The notes under the pieces were generated by a model. The model searched no databases, had not been told where the DNA came from, and was given only the letters and a program-made list of their open reading frames with translations. Shown in pieces: positions 37,251-53,814 of a stretch of 64,000 nucleotides of DNA. Made by a program: the position numbers and the translations under genes. Origin of the DNA: Minisyncoccota bacterium (GTDB lineage Bacteria; Patescibacteriota; Minisyncoccia; Phycocordibacterales; JBAZVT01); contig JBAZVT010000003.1 of the NCBI GenBank assembly GCA_041660745.1, positions 1,880 to 65,879 on the forward strand, given 5' to 3'. Within the stretch, counting starts at the first letter, position 1. Each line of letters begins with the position of its first letter.

Positions 37251-37361
37251 TTCTGGCGGCTAGCTACTTTCCCCTCCATAAGAGTATCATCACCGCAAGA
37301 GAGCTTAACTTCTGAGTTCGGAATGAGATCAGGTGTATCCCCTCCGCCATACCACCAGAAC
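37251..37361 (-). rRNA. rrf: 5S ribosomal RNA
   Basis: Minus-strand sequence gttctggtggtatggcggagggg...ccgaactcagaagttaagctct...gccgccagaac matches the 5S consensus (CCGAACUCAGAAGUGAAAC loop C). Confidence 0.85.
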
Positions 37362-37519
37362 TTAAAATTCGATATATCAAAAAACAAACCTAATAATTAC
37401 ACGGAAATACACACATCTCGCCCATCGCGAGTAGTATATAATTCCATGTAACAGGGTAAAAAACAAAAAATCTTTCTGTGACGTATCACAGAAGTGGATC
37501 TCAAATTTCCTAATAGAAA

Positions 37520-40895
<3,376 letters not shown>

Positions 40896-41221
40896 TTCCC
40901 ATTAGGAAATTTAAGAACCACAATATATTTTTTGTTTTTGTTTTACCCTGTTACATAGAATCATCTACATAACAAGTTACTTCTACATTTTACCTGCGTA
41001 TCTCCAGCTTCGAAAAGACCATATAAAATGGTTGCTGGGATACAATGAACAAATCTTATCCCGATGTGAATCGAGAATCAGCAAATGTTATTTTTCAAGG
41101 TATCGATCGTTCGGAAATAAAAAACCGCTTTTTGAGGCGGGGGTGGACTACACAAGAATACTTGGTCGTCTAACTCCGCTTTAAAATGTGGTTAGTGATC
41201 TGCATATCTGTAATGGGTATT

Positions 41222-43341: not shown

Positions 43342-43737
43342 TTATTTCAACTCCACTTTTGCACCTGCATCCTCAAGAGCTTTCTTGAGAGCCTCTGCAT
43401 CTTCTTTCTTCATACCTTCCTTGAGCATCTTTGGAGCTGCATCAACGAGGTCTTTTGCTTCCTTGAGACCAAGAGCAAGAGCTTCTTTTACAACCTTAAT
43501 AACTGCAATCTTCTGAGCACCTGCATCTGCGAGGTTAACACTGAAAATTGTTTTCTCTTCTGCCGCACCCGCTGCTGCTGGAGCTGCGACTGCTGTTGCT
43601 GCTGCAGAAACACCAAACTTAACTTCAAAGAATTTTACAAGCTCGTTGAGATCAAGTACTGACATGTTCTCAATTGCTGTTACGATATCCTTGAATTTTG
43701 CTGGAGTCTCAACAACTGTATTCTGTGCGTTGTCCAT
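43342..43737 (-). CDS. rplL: 50S ribosomal protein L7/L12
   Basis: Ala-rich hinge [15 protein letters not shown]-terminal [23 protein letters not shown]...AGAKVELK. Confidence 0.96.
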
Positions 43738-43807
43738 AATAATTCGTAATAATTAATAAATATTAAGCCTGCTTTTTCCTAAACCCTTCGGGTCGGACGA
43801 ACCTCAT

Positions 43808-44299
43808 TTATGAGGTTTTAGTCTTTGCGATAGCATCGAGAGCGATAACAAGTCCCTGTATTGGAGAATTGATAACGTTGACGAACATACCATAAAGAGT
43901 TTTCTGAGAAGGAATGAGGGCGATAGCCATCATCTCTTCTTTGTTCATAAACTTACCTTCGAAGACACCTCCGAGGATTTGAATTTTCTTGTCGAGCTTC
44001 TTCTGGAAGTCATAGACTTCGCGAGCTGCATCGGTAAGATCTTTACTGAATGCCATTCCAAGTTCGCCTGGGAGTTCTGGCAACGTACCAGTGACACCAC
44101 CATCAACAAGAGCTTTCTTAGTGATAGTTTTCTTAGCAATCTTGTACCCTATTCCCAAGCCCTTGAGAGTCTTGCGAATAATAGTAGCGTCAGCAACTGT
44201 CAATCCATGGAAGTTGAAGAGAACGATAGAACCAGAGGTTTTTACCGCATCACTTACTTCTGCATAAATTTCCTTTTTCTTTTCTTTTGAGATAGCCAT
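43808..44299 (-). CDS. rplJ: 50S ribosomal protein L10
   Basis: MAISKEKKKEIYAEVSDAVK...; directly upstream of rplL. Confidence 0.95.
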   Translation of the reverse strand: MAISKEKKKEIYAEVSDAVKTSGSIVLFNFHGLTVADATIIRKTLKGLGIGYKIAKKTITKKALVDGGVTGTLPELPGELGMAFSKDLTDAAREVYDFQKKLDKKIQILGGVFEGKFMNKEEMMAIALIPSQKTLYGMFVNVINSPIQGLVIALDAIAKTKTS

Positions 44300-44660
44300 T
44301 TGGAATTTTTTACGAACGTAGTGAGTTTAAAATTCCCACCCTGTTAAATCCCCTGAGTACAGGGAATCATAGAAATCTGATTTCTATGACATTTAACAGG
44401 GTTGTGAAAATATATTCGCTAGGCTCGTTATTTTCTACAAAATAAATCGACCCGTAAGGGCCTGATAAAAGTGAGATCTCACATATCAATAGATATGTGA
44501 GTAAACCTCGATAGGCTATTCCAGCAAAGCTGGACGCCCGTCCACCGAAGGTGGATTAGGGACCTGTATTAAAGCGGTTTTCCGCTGCCTATTGTCTTTG
44601 GCCTTACGAGGTACATATTTACATAAAATAGTTCACTTGTAAAGCAAGTACCCGCAGAAC
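44300..44660 (-). promoter_or_regulatory. rplJ (L10) 5' leader, likely autoregulatory L10-leader structure
   Basis: About 360-nt structured non-coding region upstream of rplJ with multiple hairpins; position is canonical for the L10(L12)4-binding leader. Includes the family E palindrome at 44337-44403. Confidence 0.45.
44337..44403. repeat. repeat family E copy 1 (CACCCTGTTAAATCC ... ATTTAACAGGGTT with variable hairpin core)
   Basis: Same 11-bp terminal inverted repeat ccctgttaaat/atttaacaggg as at 60946-61002; inner sequence differs but is itself a hairpin. Confidence 0.7.
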
Positions 44661-44707: not shown

Positions 44708-44741
44708 AAAAGGGTGCGGTCCGCAGCGGACCGCACCCTTT
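44708..44741. terminator. GC-rich terminator hairpin bounding GC-island 3 (bidirectional)
   Basis: aaagggtgcggtccgc-agc-ggaccgcaccctt followed by TGTTTT (+) and preceded by TTTTTATAATG (-). Confidence 0.75.
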
Positions 44742-44770
44742 GTTTTCCAACCGAGCGACACAGGTGGTCG

Positions 44771-45031
44771 CTACTCTTCTTGACCGTTTTCAGGGCAGTC
44801 CGGTTCCAACTCACAAGAGAAGTAGTACCCGAGACAGACTCCAAAGAGAATGAAACCAATCGGTCCCCCAACAACAGTAAGAGCCCTGCCCCAGAAGTCC
44901 GATTCCCTTGGCTCAAGATGACTCCGGAAAAGTCCGAAATCCTGCCAAAGAAATATCAAAACGCTCCAGACAGAACAGCAGGCCCAAAGACATGGAAGCC
45001 ACTGATAAGGATTGTGAAAAAAGGCACTCAT
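44771..45031 (-). CDS. small two-TM membrane protein (86 aa) on GC-rich island, canonical SD
   Basis: MSAFFHNPYQWLPCLWACCSVWSVLIFLWQDFGLF...ALTVVGGPIGFILFGVCLGYYFS; AGGAG 9 nt upstream of the ATG at 45031; the ORF-track entry 44771..45271 is an upstream over-extension. Confidence 0.5.
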   Translation of the reverse strand: MSAFFHNPYQWLPCLWACCSVWSVLIFLWQDFGLFRSHLEPRESDFWGRALTVVGGPIGFILFGVCLGYYFSCELEPDCPENGQEE

Positions 45032-45077
45032 ACAGCATCTCCTTTCCCGAAAGTTCCTACACAGAAGGCAAGTACGA

Positions 45078-45365
45078 TTACTCCTGCATTGGTTTGTGCA
45101 GTATTCTTTCACGCCTCGCAAGCGCCCCCGCAAAATCGTGAGCACATATTGAGATGGGTCCGAAGAGGACCCTGAATATGTACAGACGCCACGATGCCCA
45201 CGAGAATTTCCCCCGAGAAAGATCTGGGAAGAAAACGAACGCAGCGCCGATTGAGTAGCGCAGCCACGCAAGAACCGCGAGGCCTACAACAACAGCAACG
45301 ATCCCGACGGGTACAACCAGACATTCCCACATAAGAATCTCCTTCCAAAAAATAAACATCCACAT
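45078..45365 (-). CDS. small membrane protein (95 aa) on GC-rich island, SD-bearing
   Basis: MWMFIFWKEILMWECLVVPVGIVAVVVGLAVLAWLRYSIGAAFVFF...; GGATGAGGAAAG upstream of the ATG at 45365; the track entry 45078..45458 starts at TTG. Confidence 0.45.
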   Translation of the reverse strand: MWMFIFWKEILMWECLVVPVGIVAVVVGLAVLAWLRYSIGAAFVFFPDLSRGKFSWASWRLYIFRVLFGPISICAHDFAGALARRERILHKPMQE

Positions 45366-45407
45366 TCTTTCCTCATCCTTTATACCACACCTCATATCTA
45401 ATATCAA

Positions 45408-45439
45408 AAAGACCCGGGCATGTGTATGCCCGGGTCTTT
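45408..45439 (-). terminator. terminator hairpin inside GC-island 3
   Basis: aaagacccgggcat-gtgt-atgcccgggtcttt; T-run on the minus strand. Confidence 0.7.
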
Positions 45440-45464
45440 GTCCTAATGATTTGGACAAACTACT

Positions 45465-45704
45465 TCACCCCTGAAACATGTTCGCAAGAGCAATGCGCTG
45501 ACCGACACCGACGTATGGCTTCTGTTCAGAAGCAGGGAAACAACCTGCTAGCGGTGTTCCATACCCCTCGGGACCCCACAACGAACCAGGCTTGTGATAC
45601 CCACGTCCACACGATGCGACAGCCGCCAAGTCGCAAGGAGGCAGGCCACTCACATCTGCCCACGTCAGATCGCTCACCTCAGCAGTAACGTAACCGCCAC
45701 GCAT
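45465..45704 (-). CDS. hypothetical 79-aa protein on GC-rich island, GGAGG SD 5 nt upstream
   Basis: MRGGYVTAEVSDLTWADVSGLPPCDLAAVASCGRGYHKPGSLWGPEGYG...; no similarity recognised. Confidence 0.4.
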   Translation of the reverse strand: MRGGYVTAEVSDLTWADVSGLPPCDLAAVASCGRGYHKPGSLWGPEGYGTPLAGCFPASEQKPYVGVGQRIALANMFQG

Positions 45705-45783
45705 AGTGCCTCCATAGGTAAAAGAAAAGTTTATTCCGCGAACGCTCTATCACCAGAGTACCATATTGGAAGCATCGTGGGTA

Positions 45784-48700
45784 TTATTCTTCTTTTACCT
45801 CGTGTCCACCTTCAACAAAAATAATTTCCGGCACAACAACTTCTTCCGTTTGTAATTCTAATACCTCTAAAGGTTTATTTAGGGCATCATTTTTTTCCTC
45901 AACAACACCCTCCCCGCTTTCTAAATTATCGGGTTCTTTGTATTCATCGGCAATAGGTGTGGGAGTCTCTCCTTCTGTTTTTTCTTCAGAACTCACAGGG
46001 ACCTCCTCTTCCGTTTTTTCTAAAGTAGTGCTTGCTATTGATGCAGATTCCGTTTCTTCTAACATGGCCATTTGCATAGCACCGAAGACACCATCTTCGT
46101 GTATTTCAATAGCCTCAGAAAGAAGTGCAACAGTCACTGGATCTTCTGCATATGCGAGCTTAGGATTTCCTGACGGCACAGCATCAAACCATGGTGAAAA
46201 ATCGACAAGACCAAAGACTGAATCCCCCACTGCAAGATTATTTTTTATCTCTTCAAATGGCCCCGTCGCGTCACCCCACCAATTTTCTTGTGCGAGGATA
46301 GTATTTTCACCCGTAGAAAGAATGCCGTTTGAACGATTTCCAAATATTTGACTGCGAGCAACCGAAGCACTGTCCCCAAAGAAAAGAATCCCATATTCAT
46401 TACGGGCAAGTGTACTTGAAGCAATCACAACTTTCCCATCATCAAATATCCCAACACCCTCAGCTTCATTATCTGAAATATTTGAATTTGTAATCGTCAT
46501 TAAACCCGATGCCAAACTATTTCCAAATATTTCTACACCTGCACCACAATAAGAAATATCTGCATCAGAAATTTCTGCGGAAGAATTGTCGTATACATAC
46601 ACCCCTACCCCGTCCACACGGGAAATATTTGGACGTGTGACTTGGGCGGTGCTATTGGCATATATAGACAAAGCATCTCCAGAAATATTTGAAAGAGCGA
46701 GGTCAGAAAAAATCCCATGAGAATCCATGTACAGATTAATTCCGCCCGTAGTATTTTCAGCGCGCACGTCAGAAAGAGTGACCTCGGCCCCGTCGTATGC
46801 ATTCACAATGGAATCACCGCCAGAAATACTAGTATCCTGTATCGCAAGCGTACACTGTCTACAGGTGACGGTATCAGTATATGGAGAGCCTGTGATTGTG
46901 CTGTTTGAAATAACCACTGAAGAACTTGCCTGTGCACTTATTCCATCCTCAAGTTTTTTTATTTTTGTATATCCAAATACATTTCCTACAGACCCTGAAT
47001 AAAACTCCGTTGCACCAGTGCCATATTCAGAGAGTTCCCCATTATCAGAAGACCTCAAATCTCCCCCGACAGAATCATCTGTAAATTCAGTAAAAATAAC
47101 TGGATTGTCTGATGTGCCAAGCGACTTGATAGTACCCTCCACAGAAAGTCCTGTTGCATAACTCCCCCAACTTCCATTATCGTAAAATTTTACAATCGTC
47201 CCAGGCAAGAGTGTCAGCGTTGTTCCTGAAGCGACGTGTATATTACCTTCAAACACATACGGACTTTCTTCTGGAGTGAGTATCATATCTTCTGTAAAAG
47301 TTTCCCCTCTATACCACACAGTCGAAACACTGTTACGTGACTTTGGCGTGCCTAGGATATATCCATCTTTTGAATCTTTTCCATTTGCAATTTCTCCGGT
47401 GTTCGCATTCCAGTTTTCATAATCAAATCCCCCAACATACGGCGAGACCCGTTCCATGGTTCTTTTGTCACCAGTATCATTACTCCCCCCTGGCCAACTT
47501 CCTTCAACCAACACTGTCGTGTCTATGGTTGTAGATCCGTAATTTAGATTCAATATAACACCACTATTGTTGAGAGCTCCGACATATACAAGGTCTGCTT
47601 GGATATCTGAAACAGAAGTATTGTCTGTTCTCTCCAAGAGAAAGTAGCCATGGGCAGGAATTGTTTTTGATAATGAAATACGCGGTGTTCCAGTAGCTTT
47701 ACTATTAACAAGAGCCCAGCCCGAAAGATCTATATCATACGGAGTCGTGTTATACAGCTCCAACCATTCATCATTAGCATCAGCCTCTGTGCCCATCCAA
47801 GCAACTTCATTAATAACTACAGGCATCGTCGCAACAGACACACTCACTGCAACAGGCTCAGAATCACCACCTGCATTGTGTGCTGAGACAGTAAATTGTA
47901 AGTCACTTCTATCATCAACAACCACGCTGAGCCCAGAGTATGTGGTTGTAGAAACAAGACCGTTTAAATTAAATGTAAAATATTCAGCAATACCAAGAGA
48001 TTCATCTGCTTGCCAGGTCAACGTCAGGGTTGTTGTTGCAACTAGACAGCCAGTCGAGACGAGAGACTGCGAACACTCAGCGACTGAAAAATTTGTAACT
48101 CCAGGAAGCTCAGGAAGAAACGGTGACGGGATTACAGGAACCTCCGGTTCTCCGGGAGATGCTGTGTGGCGGGATCTATTTGACCCAGAATAAATAACCT
48201 GTGTTGGGTTATAAAAAGGCGCAAACACCCCAGTTGGGAAATTTGCGTCAGCTACTTTTGATTGATCTATAAAGCTCGGTGTAGAATTAAGTTCCAATCC
48301 CTCACCCTCATCAAGGACTGTGGTGATACTATTAGTAGTCTTTGACTGTAAAAAAGTAATTGATTTTATTGCAGACTGTGCAAAAGTCTGAGCACTTTCA
48401 CCTGTCTTTTTCGCAACAACCGTTGCTGTTGTCTTTCCGGTATATCCAAGAACGGAAGCGATATTCCCACCCGTTTGCACTGTCCACAACGTTCCATAAT
48501 TAGCACCCCTCCAGGCGCTTGTCGCAACTTTTGCCACAGGTGCACCTATGTAATCTGAGAAAAGATACGCAAAGCCAATTGGTATAAGTTGAAAAATATT
48601 TTTCTTCGCAAGACCCTCAGCAAGCTCTTTATCCTTCAGCGCCTCTTCTACTTGCTCCTGCTTTTGCTCTGCAAGATATTCCTCGCGCGCCGCTTTCGCC

Positions 48701-49575
48701 TCTTTCAAAAACAGCTCTATCACTCCCGCCGACGCCAGCACAGCTTGTTTTGAAAGACGATCAAAGTAGGAAGAGAGGACGGAGTCAGAAAAATAATATG
48801 TCCTTACACCATCCAAACTTATTTTTGTATTTAAAATTTCATATTTTTGGTTATCCAAACCGTCAACACCATAAATAACTGACCCGTCAGAATTTTCAAT
48901 TTCTGGATTTTCAAAATAATTTTCTGAATTATCTATTGTATCTGCACTAAAAAAATTCTTATTTGAGTAGTCTGCAAGATATTCAAAATATTCTGAGATG
49001 TCTGAAAAAGTTATTGGTTCATATCTCCGGTCAACATATTCCTTTGCAGTGCCCGTAAGCGCACTACCATCTTTCCTGCGAGCCCAATTCTCATAAGGAC
49101 TATCTCCTGTATATAACCCGGAAGCACCGTCTCCTTTATGTGGATCATTTCTTGTATGTTCAGGAACAGTCATATCCTGAATAAGATGCAGTACATGACC
49201 TAGCGACAAGAACGCTTTATTATCATTCCCCTCAGCATAATATTGGATCGCTTTTGGCCAAGAAAATTCATTAGCAACAAGCACCCCATCCGTACCCCAA
49301 TCTTTTGCTGAGCGATAGTTATTAAAACCGATTTCTCCTCTCGGATCATAAAAATGATTGAGGGCTCGAATCCCAGCATCCTCATCGACTGATCCCTGAA
49401 TAATTAAACGTTTTTCTGAATCATGTATTTTATCCGTTATGGACTGTAAATTATAAAACTCTATCCCCTGCTCGGTTATGCCAGGGTGAGTTGTTCCAGA
49501 ATGGTATGCACTCACAAAAAATATAGCCCCAAGAAATAAAGGCCCAAAAAACATTCTAAAAAATATCTTTTTCAT
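45784..49575 (-). CDS. 1263-aa secreted multidomain protein: zinc-dependent phospholipase C-like domain + Ig/Fn3-like + lamin-tail domain (LTD) + right-handed beta-helix repeats
   Basis: Signal peptide. N-terminus ALNHFYDPRGEIG...FLSLGHVLHLIQDMTVPEH resembles the Zn-PLC/alpha-toxin H-F-W/Y-D-P and H-x(2)-GD-x(2)-P-x-H motifs. VVINEVAWMGTEADANDEWLELYNTTPYDIDLSGWALV is a lamin-tail-domain signature. Repetitive NISGD/SNISDN pectate-lyase-like beta-helix repeats. Acidic C-terminal tail. Confidence 0.7.
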   Translation of the reverse strand: MKKIFFRMFFGPLFLGAIFFVSAYHSGTTHPGITEQGIEFYNLQSITDKIHDSEKRLIIQGSVDEDAGIRALNHFYDPRGEIGFNNYRSAKDWGTDGVLVANEFSWPKAIQYYAEGNDNKAFLSLGHVLHLIQDMTVPEHTRNDPHKGDGASGLYTGDSPYENWARRKDGSALTGTAKEYVDRRYEPITFSDISEYFEYLADYSNKNFFSADTIDNSENYFENPEIENSDGSVIYGVDGLDNQKYEILNTKISLDGVRTYYFSDSVLSSYFDRLSKQAVLASAGVIELFLKEAKAAREEYLAEQKQEQVEEALKDKELAEGLAKKNIFQLIPIGFAYLFSDYIGAPVAKVATSAWRGANYGTLWTVQTGGNIASVLGYTGKTTATVVAKKTGESAQTFAQSAIKSITFLQSKTTNSITTVLDEGEGLELNSTPSFIDQSKVADANFPTGVFAPFYNPTQVIYSGSNRSRHTASPGEPEVPVIPSPFLPELPGVTNFSVAECSQSLVSTGCLVATTTLTLTWQADESLGIAEYFTFNLNGLVSTTTYSGLSVVVDDRSDLQFTVSAHNAGGDSEPVAVSVSVATMPVVINEVAWMGTEADANDEWLELYNTTPYDIDLSGWALVNSKATGTPRISLSKTIPAHGYFLLERTDNTSVSDIQADLVYVGALNNSGVILNLNYGSTTIDTTVLVEGSWPGGSNDTGDKRTMERVSPYVGGFDYENWNANTGEIANGKDSKDGYILGTPKSRNSVSTVWYRGETFTEDMILTPEESPYVFEGNIHVASGTTLTLLPGTIVKFYDNGSWGSYATGLSVEGTIKSLGTSDNPVIFTEFTDDSVGGDLRSSDNGELSEYGTGATEFYSGSVGNVFGYTKIKKLEDGISAQASSSVVISNSTITGSPYTDTVTCRQCTLAIQDTSISGGDSIVNAYDGAEVTLSDVRAENTTGGINLYMDSHGIFSDLALSNISGDALSIYANSTAQVTRPNISRVDGVGVYVYDNSSAEISDADISYCGAGVEIFGNSLASGLMTITNSNISDNEAEGVGIFDDGKVVIASSTLARNEYGILFFGDSASVARSQIFGNRSNGILSTGENTILAQENWWGDATGPFEEIKNNLAVGDSVFGLVDFSPWFDAVPSGNPKLAYAEDPVTVALLSEAIEIHEDGVFGAMQMAMLEETESASIASTTLEKTEEEVPVSSEEKTEGETPTPIADEYKEPDNLESGEGVVEEKNDALNKPLEVLELQTEEVVVPEIIFVEGGHEVKEE

Positions 49576-49576
49576 G

Positions 49577-50185
49577 TTAGTTTTCTATTTTCCAAATATT
49601 TTTATAAGGATTTAACACGAATCCCACAGACCAATTTTCCTTACTACCTGCAGGAGTTGTAAAAGAGTATTCCCTCCCAGCTATTACACTAGAAGAAGTA
49701 GCTGCTTCTGTTGTCACATGAACGCTAGTAAAAAAGCACACTTCCTTGATGATGCCGGGGCCATTAGAACCTATATATTTTTCACACTTCTTAAATCCAG
49801 AATCTCTGACAACAGTAAGATAATTAAACATGAAACTCTTTTTTTCTTCTGACTCAAAGACACTCCTCAGACTCTCCTTTTGTTTTTCTTGCATTTCGAC
49901 AACATAATATTTGCTTGCCTCTTCAAGATTATTCTTCTTAAGAGCTGCAATAAACATATCCAACGTCCCCTCAGGCGTAGTACTCCCCATTGTGTCTTTC
50001 TTGTATGCCTCCTCCAGTTTCTGTCTTGGCTCTACAACCAATCTATTATAAATCGCTTCCTGACGTTGGTTCTCCATCCACAACGTAATCTTCTCACCGT
50101 ACACACCTAGAAAATAAAAAAGAATAAAAAGAGCAACAATAACAACCCCGCCAACAATGAGAGATTTTTTCAAAAAAGGAGACAT
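49577..50185 (-). CDS. hypothetical membrane-anchored protein, start adjacent to the stop of the 1263-aa gene (likely co-operonic)
   Basis: N-terminal TM (LIVGGVVIVALFILFYFLGV); no recognisable domain. Confidence 0.5.
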   Translation of the reverse strand: MSPFLKKSLIVGGVVIVALFILFYFLGVYGEKITLWMENQRQEAIYNRLVVEPRQKLEEAYKKDTMGSTTPEGTLDMFIAALKKNNLEEASKYYVVEMQEKQKESLRSVFESEEKKSFMFNYLTVVRDSGFKKCEKYIGSNGPGIIKEVCFFTSVHVTTEAATSSSVIAGREYSFTTPAGSKENWSVGFVLNPYKNIWKIEN

Positions 50186-50342
50186 TTTACGTAATATTTA
50201 ATTTAGAAATAATAATTACCAAAAACTTTTTTATTGACACACCCCACAAACCATTTTCTATATTGTATCACCCGCCCCACCAAAAATCTTCATTCCCTTT
50301 TAATAAAAACTGTGGATAACTTTTTCTTCCTTAGGACTCTTC

Positions 50343-50382
50343 CATAGGACCGCCCTATGTTTTCACATAGGGCGGTCCTATG
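50343..50382. repeat. REP-like hairpin D1 flanking the RAYT gene (CATAGGACCGCCCTATG-ttttca-CATAGGGCGGTCCTATG)
   Basis: 17-bp perfect stem; ends 4 nt from the RAYT stop codon; identical stem to D2 at 51105-51144. Confidence 0.85.
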
Positions 50383-50386
50383 GAAA

Positions 50387-51082
50387 TTATTTTGGCTCAC
50401 CTCTTAAATCTCCAAGATCCCTGAACTCAAGCCAGTCAGAAACAATACTTTCAAAAGATGGCGCTGGAGACGAAAAGTAATCCGGAAACTCATCAGCTTT
50501 TAGTATTTTTGATTCAGGTCTTAAATTAAAGTTAATTTCCACATATTCCTTGTAACTTGAATATTTATAATTATCTAAGAAATTCTCAGCTTTTTGCATG
50601 TCCACAACCCCCCTCTCTTTCCACGCAGGATCAATAATCTTTACCGGATTTAAATGTATATATGAAACTAAATACTTTAAATATTCGTCGGTATTTGCAT
50701 GAACTGCTTTAAATCGGCTCTCAAAAAGACTTCCGGTCCGTGTATTTTTTCTATTGAAATACATTGAGTATGACGTAAGCAATTTACCCAAAAATTTACT
50801 TATACCACCTTCTTCTGTTTCTTTTAAAAGTATGTGGAAATGATTTGGCATCAAACAGTATGCGCCGACAGAAACAATACTATCTTTCTTTTGAAAATTA
50901 AAAATATCCTTAAATTCCTTCTCAATCTCCCTAAAAGTTATATTTTGAGATGTATTATAAACAAATAAACCTTTAATAAAACGTTGATAATCTCTTTCGT
51001 CCTGAAAAATAAAGCGTTTATCAACGCCTCGAGCATAAATGTGATAGTACTCTCCTACACTAAATTCGATTTTTCTTTGCAT
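50387..51082 (-). CDS. REP-associated tyrosine transposase (RAYT) / IS200-like Y1 HUH transposase (COG1943)
   Basis: HUH motif LMPNHFHILL; C-terminal SRFKAVHANTDEYLKYLVSYIHLNPVK matches the RAYT catalytic-Tyr region (compare RFWEH...DYIYINPVK). Confidence 0.85.
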   Translation of the reverse strand: MQRKIEFSVGEYYHIYARGVDKRFIFQDERDYQRFIKGLFVYNTSQNITFREIEKEFKDIFNFQKKDSIVSVGAYCLMPNHFHILLKETEEGGISKFLGKLLTSYSMYFNRKNTRTGSLFESRFKAVHANTDEYLKYLVSYIHLNPVKIIDPAWKERGVVDMQKAENFLDNYKYSSYKEYVEINFNLRPESKILKADEFPDYFSSPAPSFESIVSDWLEFRDLGDLRGEPK

Positions 51083-51104
51083 TTTTATAAGAATAGAGGT
51101 TTTA

Positions 51105-51144
51105 CATAGGACCGCCCTATGTTTTTACATAGGGCGGTCCTATG
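51105..51144. repeat. REP-like hairpin D2 immediately upstream of the RAYT start
   Basis: cataggaccgccctatg-ttttta-catagggcggtcctatg; same stem as D1. Confidence 0.85.
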
Positions 51145-51412
51145 TTCTATCTATTGCTATTGTCTAAAGCATTAATGACAGAAGATGGGGTTGGGTTGGA
51201 AGCACGAAGATCGTTGCCGGAAACATAGCTGTTGTAAGAGAGGATGCCGGTGACGATGAGGCTTGCAAGAAGGATCGCGATAAAACTGAGGAAAAAATTG
51301 AAGAATGTTTTATCGAAGCAGTCTGACATTGTAATCGTATTATAACAAAGGCCTTCAGATAAGGGAAAAATGTTGCTCATAATCTGTGGATAACTCAAGA
51401 ATATATAAAATG

Positions 51413-51482
51413 CATACGACCGCCCTATGTATGTCACGGGAAAATTCCCAACTCCCTACCCTAGGGATGTCCTATGTATACG
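51413..51482. repeat. degenerate third copy (D3) of the RAYT-associated REP with a 30-nt insertion in the loop
   Basis: catacgaccgccctatgta ... cctagggatgtcctatgtatacg. Confidence 0.6.
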
Positions 51483-51573: not shown

Positions 51574-53454
51574 TTATTTAAGTCTTGATACTTCTGTATC
51601 AATGTCATTCAAGCCAGCTACGTATGATGTTGCGGCTGAAGTAACTGCATCACTGAAGTTAACTTCTGCAAGCTTAACACCTACATAGTTTGTTGATGAT
51701 GTTGCACCGTTCTCAACAGTAACCTTCAAAGTGAATGTTTCTGTCTGTCCCTCTTGAACGAGGTATGAGCCACCGGTCAAATCAGCATCTGAACTGAGAT
51801 CACTTGAAACTGTTGAACCTGAAATTGGGTTAACAATTGCAAACTGAACGCCAGTTGAAGTTGCTGTTGTTGTTGCACCCTTGAGGATGTAAGCATCTTC
51901 ACCAAATGATGTAACACTGAACTTGATTGTGTATTCGTTTCCAAATACTGTTTCTGAGTCGTTAGAAGCAACAACTGAAGTGCTGACTTCCTTGACTGAG
52001 ATACCATTTACGTAGAATGTCATAGTTTCACCGTTTGCAGAACCTGAAACTGAAACTACATCACCCTGAACGTTTTCAACGTCGAAGTCGTTTGAAACTC
52101 CAACAGAGACTTCTGCAGCATCACCGTTTGCGAATGTTGCATCGTCTGTGTCATTGAGGTCAACTTTAACAGTCAAAGTAACTGTATCATCTTCGTCAAT
52201 TGAAAGATCGAGATCTTCAAACAATACTTCACCTGAAGCATTAGCTGAAGCGATAGTTACAGAATCAAGAAGATCTGAACCGTCGTAAAGGTAAACTTTC
52301 TTGAACATACCTGTGATTGTACTTGTTGCACCTGAAGTTGTTGCAATAACAACTGGGATTTCATTAACAACCATATCTCCATCGTTTGCCTTGAGCTTGA
52401 AGACAAGAGCTGTAACATCTGTTGTGTCATCAGACTCGTCAACTTCAATACTCTGAGCGTCTGGATTTGAAGTTGCTTCACTTACAACGAGATCCTCACC
52501 TGAGAGGCCAGCAACATCAAAGGTTTCAACTGTACCCTCGAGGTCTGTCTGAGATCCAGCAACCTTACTGTAGGTATCACTGATTCCAGCACCATCAACT
52601 GCGCGGATTCCACTTACTGGAATTGCAACAGTCCATGTTGTACCTTCGTCATCTCCGTCAACGTTCTCAACTGCAGTAACCTCAACAAAGAGTTCTGCAA
52701 CTTCATCTGCTTTTACAACACCACTAAGGCCTGTAAAGCGGAATGAGTATACATCACTGTCTTCGTCTGCTTCTGAAGCATCCATAGTGTCAATGGTCTT
52801 ACCATCAAGGACGAGAGCTACTGAGTCAATGTATCGTGTCAAACGATCTGATGCACCTGTAGCAACTGTTGTTGCTTTGAAGTCAACATCAATACGTGAA
52901 ATAACGATATCTGAATCTTTTGCTTCAACCTCAAGACCGAGAACCTGAACATCTTCGTCACCTTCTTCAATTGATGAATCAACTGAAAGTGTGTCATTGA
53001 TGTCAAGAGAACCTTCTTCGCCAGATGTTGTTACAACTGGTGTTGTTGGTGTTCCTGGTGTAACTACAACTGGAGCTGCAACATTCAATGCTGCGCGGGT
53101 CAAAGGACCAACGTAACCTGTTGCACTGATTCCCTTTGTAGCTTGGTATGCCTGTACAGCTGCTTTGGTGATAGCACCGAAGTAACCTGTAGCTGGTGTA
53201 ACACCGAGCTTTGCCTGGAGAGCTGAAACATCAGCACCTCGTGAGCCTACAGTAAGATCTGTTGAGTAAACATATCCTGCTGGTGTTGATACTGTTGAAC
53301 CACTAAGCTGGGCGATCTGGGCCTGGAGCTGAGCGATCATTGCGTTCAAAGCTGCAATGTCTGTTGTCTGTGCCTTTGCTACTGGAGCGAAGACAAGACC
53401 AAGGACGATAGCAACTGCCGCAACTACTGCGAACAATTTTGTTGTTTTTGTCAT
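51574..53454 (-). CDS. acidic Thr/Val/Asp-rich surface protein with N-terminal peptidoglycan-binding (PG_binding_1) domain
   Basis: Signal peptide; LTVGSRGADVSALQAKLGV...TGYFGAITKAAVQAYQATKGISATGYVGPLTRAAL is a classic PG_binding_1 repeat; long acidic repetitive Ig-like region. Start taken at MTKTTKLF (53454). Confidence 0.65.
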   Translation of the reverse strand: MTKTTKLFAVVAAVAIVLGLVFAPVAKAQTTDIAALNAMIAQLQAQIAQLSGSTVSTPAGYVYSTDLTVGSRGADVSALQAKLGVTPATGYFGAITKAAVQAYQATKGISATGYVGPLTRAALNVAAPVVVTPGTPTTPVVTTSGEEGSLDINDTLSVDSSIEEGDEDVQVLGLEVEAKDSDIVISRIDVDFKATTVATGASDRLTRYIDSVALVLDGKTIDTMDASEADEDSDVYSFRFTGLSGVVKADEVAELFVEVTAVENVDGDDEGTTWTVAIPVSGIRAVDGAGISDTYSKVAGSQTDLEGTVETFDVAGLSGEDLVVSEATSNPDAQSIEVDESDDTTDVTALVFKLKANDGDMVVNEIPVVIATTSGATSTITGMFKKVYLYDGSDLLDSVTIASANASGEVLFEDLDLSIDEDDTVTLTVKVDLNDTDDATFANGDAAEVSVGVSNDFDVENVQGDVVSVSGSANGETMTFYVNGISVKEVSTSVVASNDSETVFGNEYTIKFSVTSFGEDAYILKGATTTATSTGVQFAIVNPISGSTVSSDLSSDADLTGGSYLVQEGQTETFTLKVTVENGATSSTNYVGVKLAEVNFSDAVTSAATSYVAGLNDIDTEVSRLK

Positions 53455-53814
53455 ATAGTAATGAATTCTAATAAATGAGTATTTGTGCAAGACACGTTAC
53501 TTAATAAAAAGGTGTGTTCACACAACTACTGTAATAAATTTCACGATCGTACTATATATAGTACGTTAGTGAACCTAATAATGCGTCATCACTCTTGCGA
53601 GCGACAACAAACTACACATTCACTAATCTCGGGGGCTTTATTACTCAACCGCCCCAGGTGGACAAAAGAATTTATTCATTCGTCCACGCGAGGCAGTTAA
53701 ATCGACACAAAGCTTTTACGAGTTTAGGTGATGAAAGTAGGTCTGAGTTCTATCGGAAGCAACCATGTCTGAAGAAGTGTACGGGAATGTCTTTTAGACT
53801 GGGAATAAGAAATC

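Follow-up and report, generated by a model that had tools for sequence, protein, structure and literature searches.

A conserved patescibacterial gene pair predicted to encode an exported phospholipase C-like phosphodiesterase with surface-binding modules and a membrane-anchored partner

The gene pair

Two adjacent genes on the minus strand of the 64-kb stretch of DNA analysed here (the window) encode a membrane protein of 202 amino acids (aa) and an exported protein of 1263 aa whose N-terminal domain – the head – is predicted to be a divergent relative of the zinc-dependent phospholipases C (Zn-PLCs). Open reading frame (ORF) calls place the small gene at 49577-50185 and the large gene, as a single uninterrupted frame including its stop codon, at 45784-49575; parts of the pair are all given below in minus-strand reading. 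The small gene is transcribed first: its TAA (49579-49577) is followed by one nucleotide and then by the ATG of the large gene at 49575. The first-pass annotation, which had placed the membrane protein downstream, thus had the order reversed. A protein identical to the large one is in the public record as MFA6094481.1, a 'right-handed parallel beta-helix repeat-containing protein' from a metagenome-assembled genome (MAG) of Candidatus Paceibacterota; the 202-aa protein is named 'hypothetical protein'. The names of homologues place the organism among the Patescibacteria, in keeping with its earlier description as one of reduced genome.

Upstream of the small gene a perfect 20-bp palindrome ends the preceding gene and is followed by an AT-rich stretch that carries a candidate extended -10 promoter element, TGaTACAAT (50262-50270, minus strand), read from the sequence some 75 nt 5′ of the ATG. 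A consensus promoter scan missed this putative element for want of a good -35 element. At the other end, the first strong intrinsic terminator (45408-45439, minus strand), with a perfect 14-bp stem and a T-run, lies 345 nt past the stop codon of the large gene. Between the stop codon and this terminator is an ORF of 79 aa (45465-45704) with a GGAGG ribosome-binding site, for which no homologue was found across 81 related loci.

Architecture of the large protein

The protein begins with a signal peptide (residues 1-23; 49507-49575) with a hydrophobic core score of 1.92 and a predicted signal peptidase I cleavage site, VSA/Y24, that is conserved among relatives, as the earlier description of a secreted protein had implied. 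The head follows (residues 24-300; 48676-49506), recognised as a divergent Zn-PLC-like phosphoesterase domain from an AF2 model, Foldseek and hhalign comparisons and the conservation of its ligands; the model gives it a beta-hairpin insert at residues 226-261. Next comes a region defined by model and composition (48109-48675): a charged helix that ends at residue 329 and that the model makes very long (residues 264-329), a weakly hydrophobic segment (327-350), and a Ser/Thr-rich linker of low complexity reaching residue 489 (some 150 residues, 23% S+T). The weakly hydrophobic segment was considered as a transmembrane helix and rejected, its hydrophobicity of only 1.3 lying below the transmembrane range.

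Beyond the linker is an Ig/Fn3-like module with a pair of cysteines (residues 490-582; 47830-48108), detected by family-profile match: against the PDB the profile finds the BIg domains of SiiE (2yn3, E 1.4e-9) and chitinase Fn3 domains, and Big_13 and Big_6 are matched in the same region of relatives. Where the first-pass annotation saw Ig-like repeats, then, one recognisable module stands, and the plural does not, the preceding stretch being the low-complexity linker. The lamin-tail domain (LTD, PF00932; residues 583 to ~745; 47341-47829) is a Pfam match above threshold (44.7 bits against a cut-off of 34.3, E 2e-11, residues 583-675), and the motifs by which it had been spotted – INEVAW, DEWLELYNTT and LSGWAL – lie at residues 587-621. 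Near-invariant residues among relatives run from I588, N589, E590 and W593 to N748. The right-handed parallel beta-helix that had also been called (residues 746-1135; 46171-47340) is borne out by Pfam Beta_helix (PF13229, 74.9 bits against 25.9, E 7e-21) and NosD (PF05048, 30.3 bits against 23.6, E 3.4e-7); against the PDB the family profile matches NosD itself (7o0y, E 0.011). A single-sequence PDB search with the LTD/beta-helix region returned nothing. The acidic tail is likewise as described: residues 1136-1263, encoded with the stop codon at 45784-46170, contain 27% D+E, and no LPXTG-type sorting motif was found on reading their sequence. NCBIfam matches neither the large protein nor its partner.

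A family of paired genes

An exhaustive profile search places the large protein in a family of 7331 cluster representatives (50% identity) at E≤1e-3, 1557 of them at E≤1e-30; of the best 146 representatives, 85 reach a length of 1100 aa or more. When one genome was scanned for each species, 465 loci came up, and the best 80 of these are nearly all labelled as patescibacterial lineages: Taylor-, Vogel-, Lloyd-, Azam-, Yanofsky-, Terry-, Specht- and Sungbacteria, Minisyncoccia and Paceibacterota. On some MAGs the label, an automated one only, is Saccharibacteria or Gammaproteobacteria. None of the family members seen carries a functional annotation, the NCBI name being simply 'beta-helix repeat-containing protein'.

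Among full-length relatives the LTD is present in 37 of 38 and the beta-helix in 26 of 38, and a subset of about 800 aa has no beta-helix. At three loci – L001 (6639-10591), L077 and L043 – a break within the linker divides the gene into one for a head of ~390-530 aa and an overlapping or adjacent one for the Ig, LTD and beta-helix regions; these could be real two-gene versions or assembly frameshifts. On these figures the conserved core extends from the signal peptide through the PLC-like head, the helix, the linker and the Ig module to the LTD, and leaves out the beta-helix. Two loci, L059 and L060, come from the same MAG (CAZQSS01), so two paralogues of the enzyme gene can occur in one genome.

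The partner gene lies directly upstream of the enzyme gene at 75 of 81 loci when sought by profile and at 73 by phmmer; of the six loci that lack it, four offer no sequence on that side. Measured to the nearest possible enzyme start, the partner's stop codon falls at -30 to +60 nt in 71 of 76 pairs and at -8 to +10 nt in 37. Partner and enzyme are a conserved two-gene operon of Parcubacteria/Paceibacteria, and the co-transcribed membrane partner of the first-pass annotation is thereby a true operon partner. Chance can be discounted as the source of these patterns, given the pairing at 75 of 81 loci and the invariance, across 244 relatives, of the motifs described below. The surroundings of P0019/L082, a distant relative with the same HTRNDPH motif, are uninformative: ankyrin-repeat proteins and unknowns.

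Fold of the head

The AF2 model of the N-terminal domain, built from an alignment of 20 homologues (pLDDT 82, pTM 0.82), has the all-alpha PLC fold. In a Foldseek search of the PDB its top 17 matches are all Zn-PLCs (E 1e-4 to 7.5e-3, probability 1.0), among them 2fgn (9.6e-5), 8cqm, 1ca1, 1olp and 1ah7. These include PC-PLC of Bacillus cereus, PlcB of Listeria and the alpha-toxins of Clostridium perfringens and C. absonum, with TM scores of 0.57-0.59 relative to the 245-aa PLCs. Both 1AH7 and 1OLP had been named beforehand as the folds to be expected. Nucleases of the S1/P1 type come next in the list, at E 0.43-1.1 and probability 0.18-0.41 (3w52 and 4cxo among them).

Profile comparisons give the same ranking. 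Against the PDB the family profile finds PLCs only (8cqm at E 1.1e-3): S1/P1 chains are absent from the matches up to E 10. Used as a single-sequence query, the N-terminal domain found nothing useful there. We then aligned a profile of 244 family sequences by hhalign with the sequences of 1AH7 and of S1 nuclease (5FB9), both checked against the PDB. The local alignment to 1AH7 has a probability of 93% (P 2.9e-7) and covers 217 columns and PLC residues 11-244, as far as the last helix; the global alignment runs from W1/Y24 onward. The local alignment to S1 reaches a probability of 12% (P 2.5e-3), and globally there is no alignment (0.04%). The first-pass annotation had held that a better alignment to S1/P1 nuclease than to PLC would overturn it; the alignments run the other way. 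Pfam S1-P1_nuclease (PF02265) gives no match at E≤1.

Motifs agree with this placement. HFYDP is present at residues 74-78, as had been noted. The second motif proposed at the outset, H-x-L-x-D-x(2)-V-P-x-H, is there as HLIQDMTVPEH, though its spacing is H-x3-D (H130-x3-D134-x2-V-P-x-H140). The last ligand motif is the PLC-like S-x-Y-E (S-P-Y-E) and not the H-x-x-W-D of the nucleases, and the GGN motif that follows the third histidine of nucleases is absent, the family having H-T-R-N-D-P-H at that point. Since Foldseek, hhalign and the PDB profile search all favour PLC over S1/P1, the head is, as judged from model and profiles, a divergent member of the PLC/P1-nuclease superfamily on the PLC side.

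Metal ligands and the mature N-terminus

We take the zinc ligands of PC-PLC (1AH7) to be W1 (through N and O), H14, D55, H69, H118, D122, H128, H142 and E146. Their fate was counted in the alignment of the 244 relatives, in which average column identity is about 23%. W1 corresponds to Y24 (kept in 237 of 238 sequences), H14 to H30 (239/239), D55 to D66 (242/242), H69 to H74 (242/242), H118 to H130 (244/244), D122 to D134 (244/244), H128 to H140 (243/244) and E146 to E162 (244/244). The expectation that the metal ligands would be retained therefore holds at eight of nine PLC positions and fails at the ninth, that of H142. Six residues past H140, within the signature P-[ED]-H-T-R-N-D-P-H, stands an invariant histidine (H146, 244/244), which may substitute for PLC H142 as a metal ligand. 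Two arginines beside the ligands, R70 and R142, are near-invariant or invariant. Such near-absolute constancy of ligands and N-terminal residue in 244 divergent sequences is, at the level of sequence, the signature of a maintained active site.

In PLC and P1 nuclease the N-terminal residue, W1, ligates metal through main-chain atoms. Among relatives 224 of 226 sequences have A, G or S just before Y24, with a small or aliphatic residue at -3; tyrosine occupies +1 in 237 of 238, and 99% have a hydrophobic core. Exactly five residues separate the tyrosine from H30, with four in 13 cases. Conserved cleavage site, tyrosine and spacing are what would be expected were signal peptidase I to expose a tyrosine that ligates metal through its main chain, and the mature tyrosine is accordingly a predicted ligand made by processing, a prediction drawn from sequence conservation.

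The membrane partner

The 202-aa protein is a single-pass membrane protein, with a transmembrane helix at about residues 10-30 (Kyte-Doolittle 2.82) and a helical stalk to residue 63. Its AF2 model (pLDDT 95) shows a helix from residue 3 to 63, then four helices and a six-stranded sheet. The ectodomain bears the signature K-x-D-x-x-G-G-K-T-P-E-E-T...F..A.K.GD.ELASKYY, and D64, T70, E72, T74, Y93, W198 and K199 are polar residues invariant in, and specific to, the family. There are two conserved cysteines, which fit an extracytoplasmic location.

A single-sequence search with the partner recovers itself and one relative only; a profile search brings the homologues to more than 1626, which have neither a functional name nor a Pfam domain. 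Pfam likewise finds no domain in the window protein, and DUF4878 (PF12870) is matched below threshold in 21 of 55 homologues (best E 1.2e-4). The partner profile finds a de novo NTF2 protein in the PDB weakly (5l33, E 0.11), and the best Foldseek match is SnoaL-like 3i0y at only E 0.3, a score probably weakened by the 60-residue N-terminal helix. Several lines, none individually significant, thus agree that the ectodomain looks NTF2-like or DUF4878-like. The signature shares T-P-E-E-T...F..A...GD...A..Y and the alpha+beta order with the extracytoplasmic DUF4878/NTF2-like proteins and lipoproteins; the partner differs from these in having no Pfam match, and in carrying a transmembrane helix and long stalk in place of a lipobox.

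Function of the pair

The data support an exported, N-terminally processed, metal-dependent predicted phosphodiesterase with surface-binding modules, made together with a membrane-anchored partner. Judged from model and ligand pattern, the head very probably works like a Zn-PLC-type enzyme.

A number of observations weigh against this reading. Pfam Zn_dep_PLPC (PF00882) scores 18.7 bits in the full protein (residues 53-145) and 21.9 bits in the N-terminal domain alone, against a gathering threshold of 26.8; it was matched in 10 of 21 members, always below threshold, although it is the only member of its clan to be matched at all, which speaks for the PLC reading. Identity of the head to PLCs is only 13-17%. 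The position of PC-PLC H142 is occupied by Gly, Glu, Ala or Asp, and H146, its candidate replacement, lies in a loop with a pLDDT of only 56-59. The spacing from the mature tyrosine to the first histidine (Y1...H7) is closer to that of P1/S1 nuclease (W1...H6) than to that of PLC (W1...H14). The residues that we take to form the choline pocket of PC-PLC – E4, Y56 and F66 – fall by hhalign on a gap, A67 and A71, and the pocket is thus not conserved. No lipid-related gene recurs around the operon in the neighbourhoods of the related loci. Finally, the LTD is typical of extracellular nucleases such as ExeM (PMC6085458). Given the sub-threshold score and the one ligand that seems to have moved, the large protein is not a bona fide member of PF00882.

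Several of these points lend themselves to a different enzyme: an extracellular, S1/P1-like nuclease or nucleotidase that degrades environmental or host nucleic acids for nucleotide salvage, its LTD aiding DNA or surface binding as in ExeM/NucH. Patescibacteria are unable to make nucleotides (PMC11665869) and LTDs occur in extracellular nucleases (PMC6085458, PMC8289736); the structural superfamily is the same, with 3w52 and 4cxo in the Foldseek list, the weak hhalign match to S1 runs through the ligand motifs, and both the N-terminal spacing and the arginines at positions 70 and 142 would be at home in a nuclease. We nonetheless regard a nuclease as unlikely: PLC is clearly closer, both by Foldseek (E 1e-4 against 0.4-1.1) and by hhalign (93% against 12%), and neither the PDB profile search, nor Pfam, nor the terminal motif, nor the residues after the third histidine point to S1/P1.

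If the head is a Zn-PLC-type phosphodiesterase, the pair might operate as follows. The first gene would give a single-pass membrane protein that displays its helical stalk and NTF2-like domain outside the cell. The second, translationally coupled to the first, would give a 1263-aa protein exported by Sec, from which signal peptidase I would cut the signal peptide after Ala23, leaving Tyr24 as the new N-terminus. Tyr24 would then fold back and complete a tri-metal, presumably zinc, centre – as Trp1 does in zinc phospholipase C and P1 nuclease – whose other members would be H30, D66, H74, H130, D134, H140, E162 and probably H146. The head, tethered via the long helix and the flexible linker, would act outside the cytoplasm, and the Ig-like, lamin-tail and beta-helix modules would bind or reach the target surface. 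Acting on the membranes of host or neighbouring cells, the enzyme would most likely hydrolyse phospholipids at the head group, and the diacylglycerol and phosphate esters set free would supply an organism that makes no lipids of its own. Anchoring, guarding or accepting the product would fall to the partner.

Phospholipid is the most likely substrate, since no relative is closer than PLC across the fold as a whole and since the organism depends on external lipids; we regard this assignment as evenly poised. According to a 2024 review, Patescibacteria lack lipid synthesis, and no mechanism of lipid uptake or breakdown has been identified in them (PMC11665869); in Vampirococcus a secreted phospholipase has been proposed to harvest host lipids (PMC8080830). 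Lack of a conserved choline pocket means that an alpha-toxin-like specificity cannot be assumed, and if the substrate is a lipid then the head-group specificity would be unlike that of PC-PLC. The roles first suggested for the protein – membrane-active enzyme, adhesin, host-interaction effector, agent of lipid acquisition – are plausible conjectures.

The unconserved pocket also leaves room for a substrate other than lipid. The enzyme could cut phosphodiesters of envelope polymers – teichoic or lipoteichoic acids, phosphorylated capsules, cell-wall linkages – either in a host or in its own wall or S-layer during growth. The invariant arginines would suit polyanionic substrates, and the beta-helix, Ig and LTD modules would provide a hold on polysaccharides, which Beta_helix/NosD (CASH-type) modules usually bind or cleave. 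A surface protein with PG_binding_1 is a recurrent neighbour (25 of 81 loci; 51574-53490 in the window), and near-universality in the lineage and synteny with housekeeping genes fit a role in the cell's own envelope. That synteny, however, may reflect shared ancestry only, and about a third of full-length relatives have no beta-helix yet keep the enzyme domain and the LTD. We know, moreover, of no member of the Zn-PLC/P1 superfamily that acts on teichoic acids, and we think an envelope-polymer substrate quite improbable. That the protein is chiefly a structural adhesin or S-layer-associated fibre, its PLC-like head a non-catalytic binding module, would fit its adhesin-like modules and acidic tail, its profile match to SiiE BIg domains and the sub-threshold Pfam PLC score, but is very hard to square with a ligand set and processed N-terminal residue that are near-absolutely invariant in 244 sequences averaging ~23% column identity.

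Alongside a Zn-PLC-type enzyme the partner may be an anchor (for example by helix-helix pairing), a shield of the producer's own membrane, or an acceptor of hydrophobic product; it could alternatively be a self-protecting immunity protein against the enzyme. No fusion of partner and enzyme occurs among 168 family members, and there is thus no 'Rosetta-stone' support for a physical interaction. A bolder proposal, which we put forward as speculation with the balance of probability well against it, is a dedicated lipid-harvesting pair of the Parcubacteria/Paceibacteria, in which the surface-tethered enzyme strips head groups from phospholipids of a host or neighbour and the cone-shaped pocket of the NTF2-like domain captures diacylglycerol or lysolipid and delivers it to the cell's own membrane. 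Were this so, no machinery for lipid acquisition would have been identified in Patescibacteria before this pair.

Relation to known systems

The closest known relatives are the Zn-PLCs: PC-PLC of B. cereus (1AH7), PlcB of Listeria (8CQM) and the N-terminal domain of C. perfringens alpha-toxin (1CA1). Likeness extends from the N-terminus to the last helix of the all-helical fold, and takes in HFYDP, H-x3-D-x5-H and S-x-Y-E, the aspartate equivalent to D55, secretion, and a processed N-terminal aromatic residue positioned as a metal ligand. Besides the low identity and the sub-threshold Pfam score, the window head differs in that the position of H142 is not histidine, with H146 in H-T-R-N-D-P-H as its possible replacement, in having Tyr rather than Trp at +1 and only five residues before the first histidine, in the absence of the choline pocket, and in the beta-hairpin insert at 226-261. 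It has no propeptide, the N-terminus being predicted to arise directly through signal peptidase; it is fused to helix, linker, Ig module, LTD and beta-helix, whereas Zn-PLCs stand alone or carry a PLAT domain; and its family has an obligatory membrane partner, NTF2-like in appearance, encoded upstream. With the S1/P1 nucleases (5FB9, 1AK0, 3W52; PF02265) it shares superfamily, a short distance from N-terminal ligand to first histidine, secretion and, as predicted, tri-zinc chemistry; it differs in its much weaker fold and profile similarity and in lacking GGN, H-x-x-W-D and the Pfam match.

In PlcH-PlcR of Pseudomonas aeruginosa a phospholipase C gene shares an operon with the gene for a small accessory protein, PlcR, which is encoded downstream. 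The likeness in operon pairing is an analogy only, since PlcH belongs to the unrelated, non-zinc PLC/acid-phosphatase family and PlcR is neither NTF2-like nor membrane-anchored. ExeM/NucH resemble the large protein in combining signal peptide, lamin-tail and phosphoesterase module in one surface or secreted protein (PMC6085458). Their catalytic modules, however, are EEP and OB-fold nucleases and not PLC-like, they lack both beta-helix and NTF2-like partner, and the LTD of ExeM is N-terminal, unlike that of the window protein.

In the literature searched on Patescibacteria, Candidate Phyla Radiation (CPR) bacteria or Parcubacteria together with lamin tail domain, phospholipase C or beta-helix, no description of this enzyme family was found. 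The combination of an altered third metal site, a predicted tyrosine ligand made directly by signal peptidase, fusion to LTD and beta-helix, and an obligatory membrane partner that looks NTF2-like is new with respect to the searched literature, and is not captured by Pfam or NCBIfam. With its altered third metal site and predicted N-terminal tyrosine ligand, the family would make up a third branch of the PLC/P1-nuclease superfamily, set apart by structure. The chemistry is familiar; family size, lineage distribution and the bearing on how these bacteria come by their lipids nevertheless make testing worthwhile, and the strong conservation of active-site residues, export signal and partner gene offers a concrete, cloneable candidate enzyme together with a candidate interaction.

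Surroundings of the operon

Three kinds of neighbour recur around the related loci: the PG_binding_1 surface protein (25), a Y1_Tnp-like gene (22) and, downstream, the genes for ribosomal proteins L10 and L7/L12 (8). All are present in the window. This suggests inherited synteny and not functional linkage beyond the gene pair. The surface protein in the window is a secreted protein of 638 aa (51574-53490) with a coiled N-terminal region, PG_binding_1 and a long acidic region rich in Thr, Ser and Asp; it may be an S-layer or cell-wall-associated protein.

The Y1 gene, of the IS200-like Y1 transposase family (50387-51082, minus strand), has a perfect palindrome of 42-46 nt on either side, at 50340-50385 and 51104-51145, the two being nearly identical. 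The palindrome core, CATAGGGCGGTCCTATG, has 10 matches where 0.05 are expected by chance, and a degenerate third copy of the palindrome lies at 51413-51476. By analogy, palindromes and gene resemble repetitive extragenic palindromic (REP) elements with a transposase of the REP-associated tyrosine transposase (RAYT) type. A homologue recurs near the operon in 22 of 81 loci, and the gene thus behaves as a resident and not as a mobile one.

On the other side, the ~1.1 kb between the stop codon of the large gene and the L10 leader and gene (44709-45783) has a GC content of 0.49-0.53 against 0.37-0.42 in its surroundings. It contains three small minus-strand ORFs – the 79-aa frame and two small, hydrophobic, Cys-rich ones – and two perfect intrinsic terminators (45439-45408 and 44741-44709). 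The ORFs have no Pfam match, the stretch resembles no phage DNA and is without counterpart at the 81 related loci, and Rfam, consulted for a structured RNA, gave sub-threshold matches only. In locus L073 the matching junction is only 134 nt long. The stretch looks like a small foreign insertion of unspecified nature.

Just 5′ of the L10-L7/L12 genes (43342-44299, minus strand), positions 44431-44619 match the ribosomal protein L10 leader (RF00557) with 31.6 bits, short of the gathering score of 44; judged from sequence, the leader plausibly exists here in a divergent CPR form. Neither a 16S rRNA gene nor tRNA genes were found in the 64-kb window. The window does hold a 5S gene (37251-37359) after a 23S rRNA gene (37507-40906), which takes 3400 nt for 2925 model positions; the ~475 nt of insertions are possible introns, such as are common in CPR bacteria.

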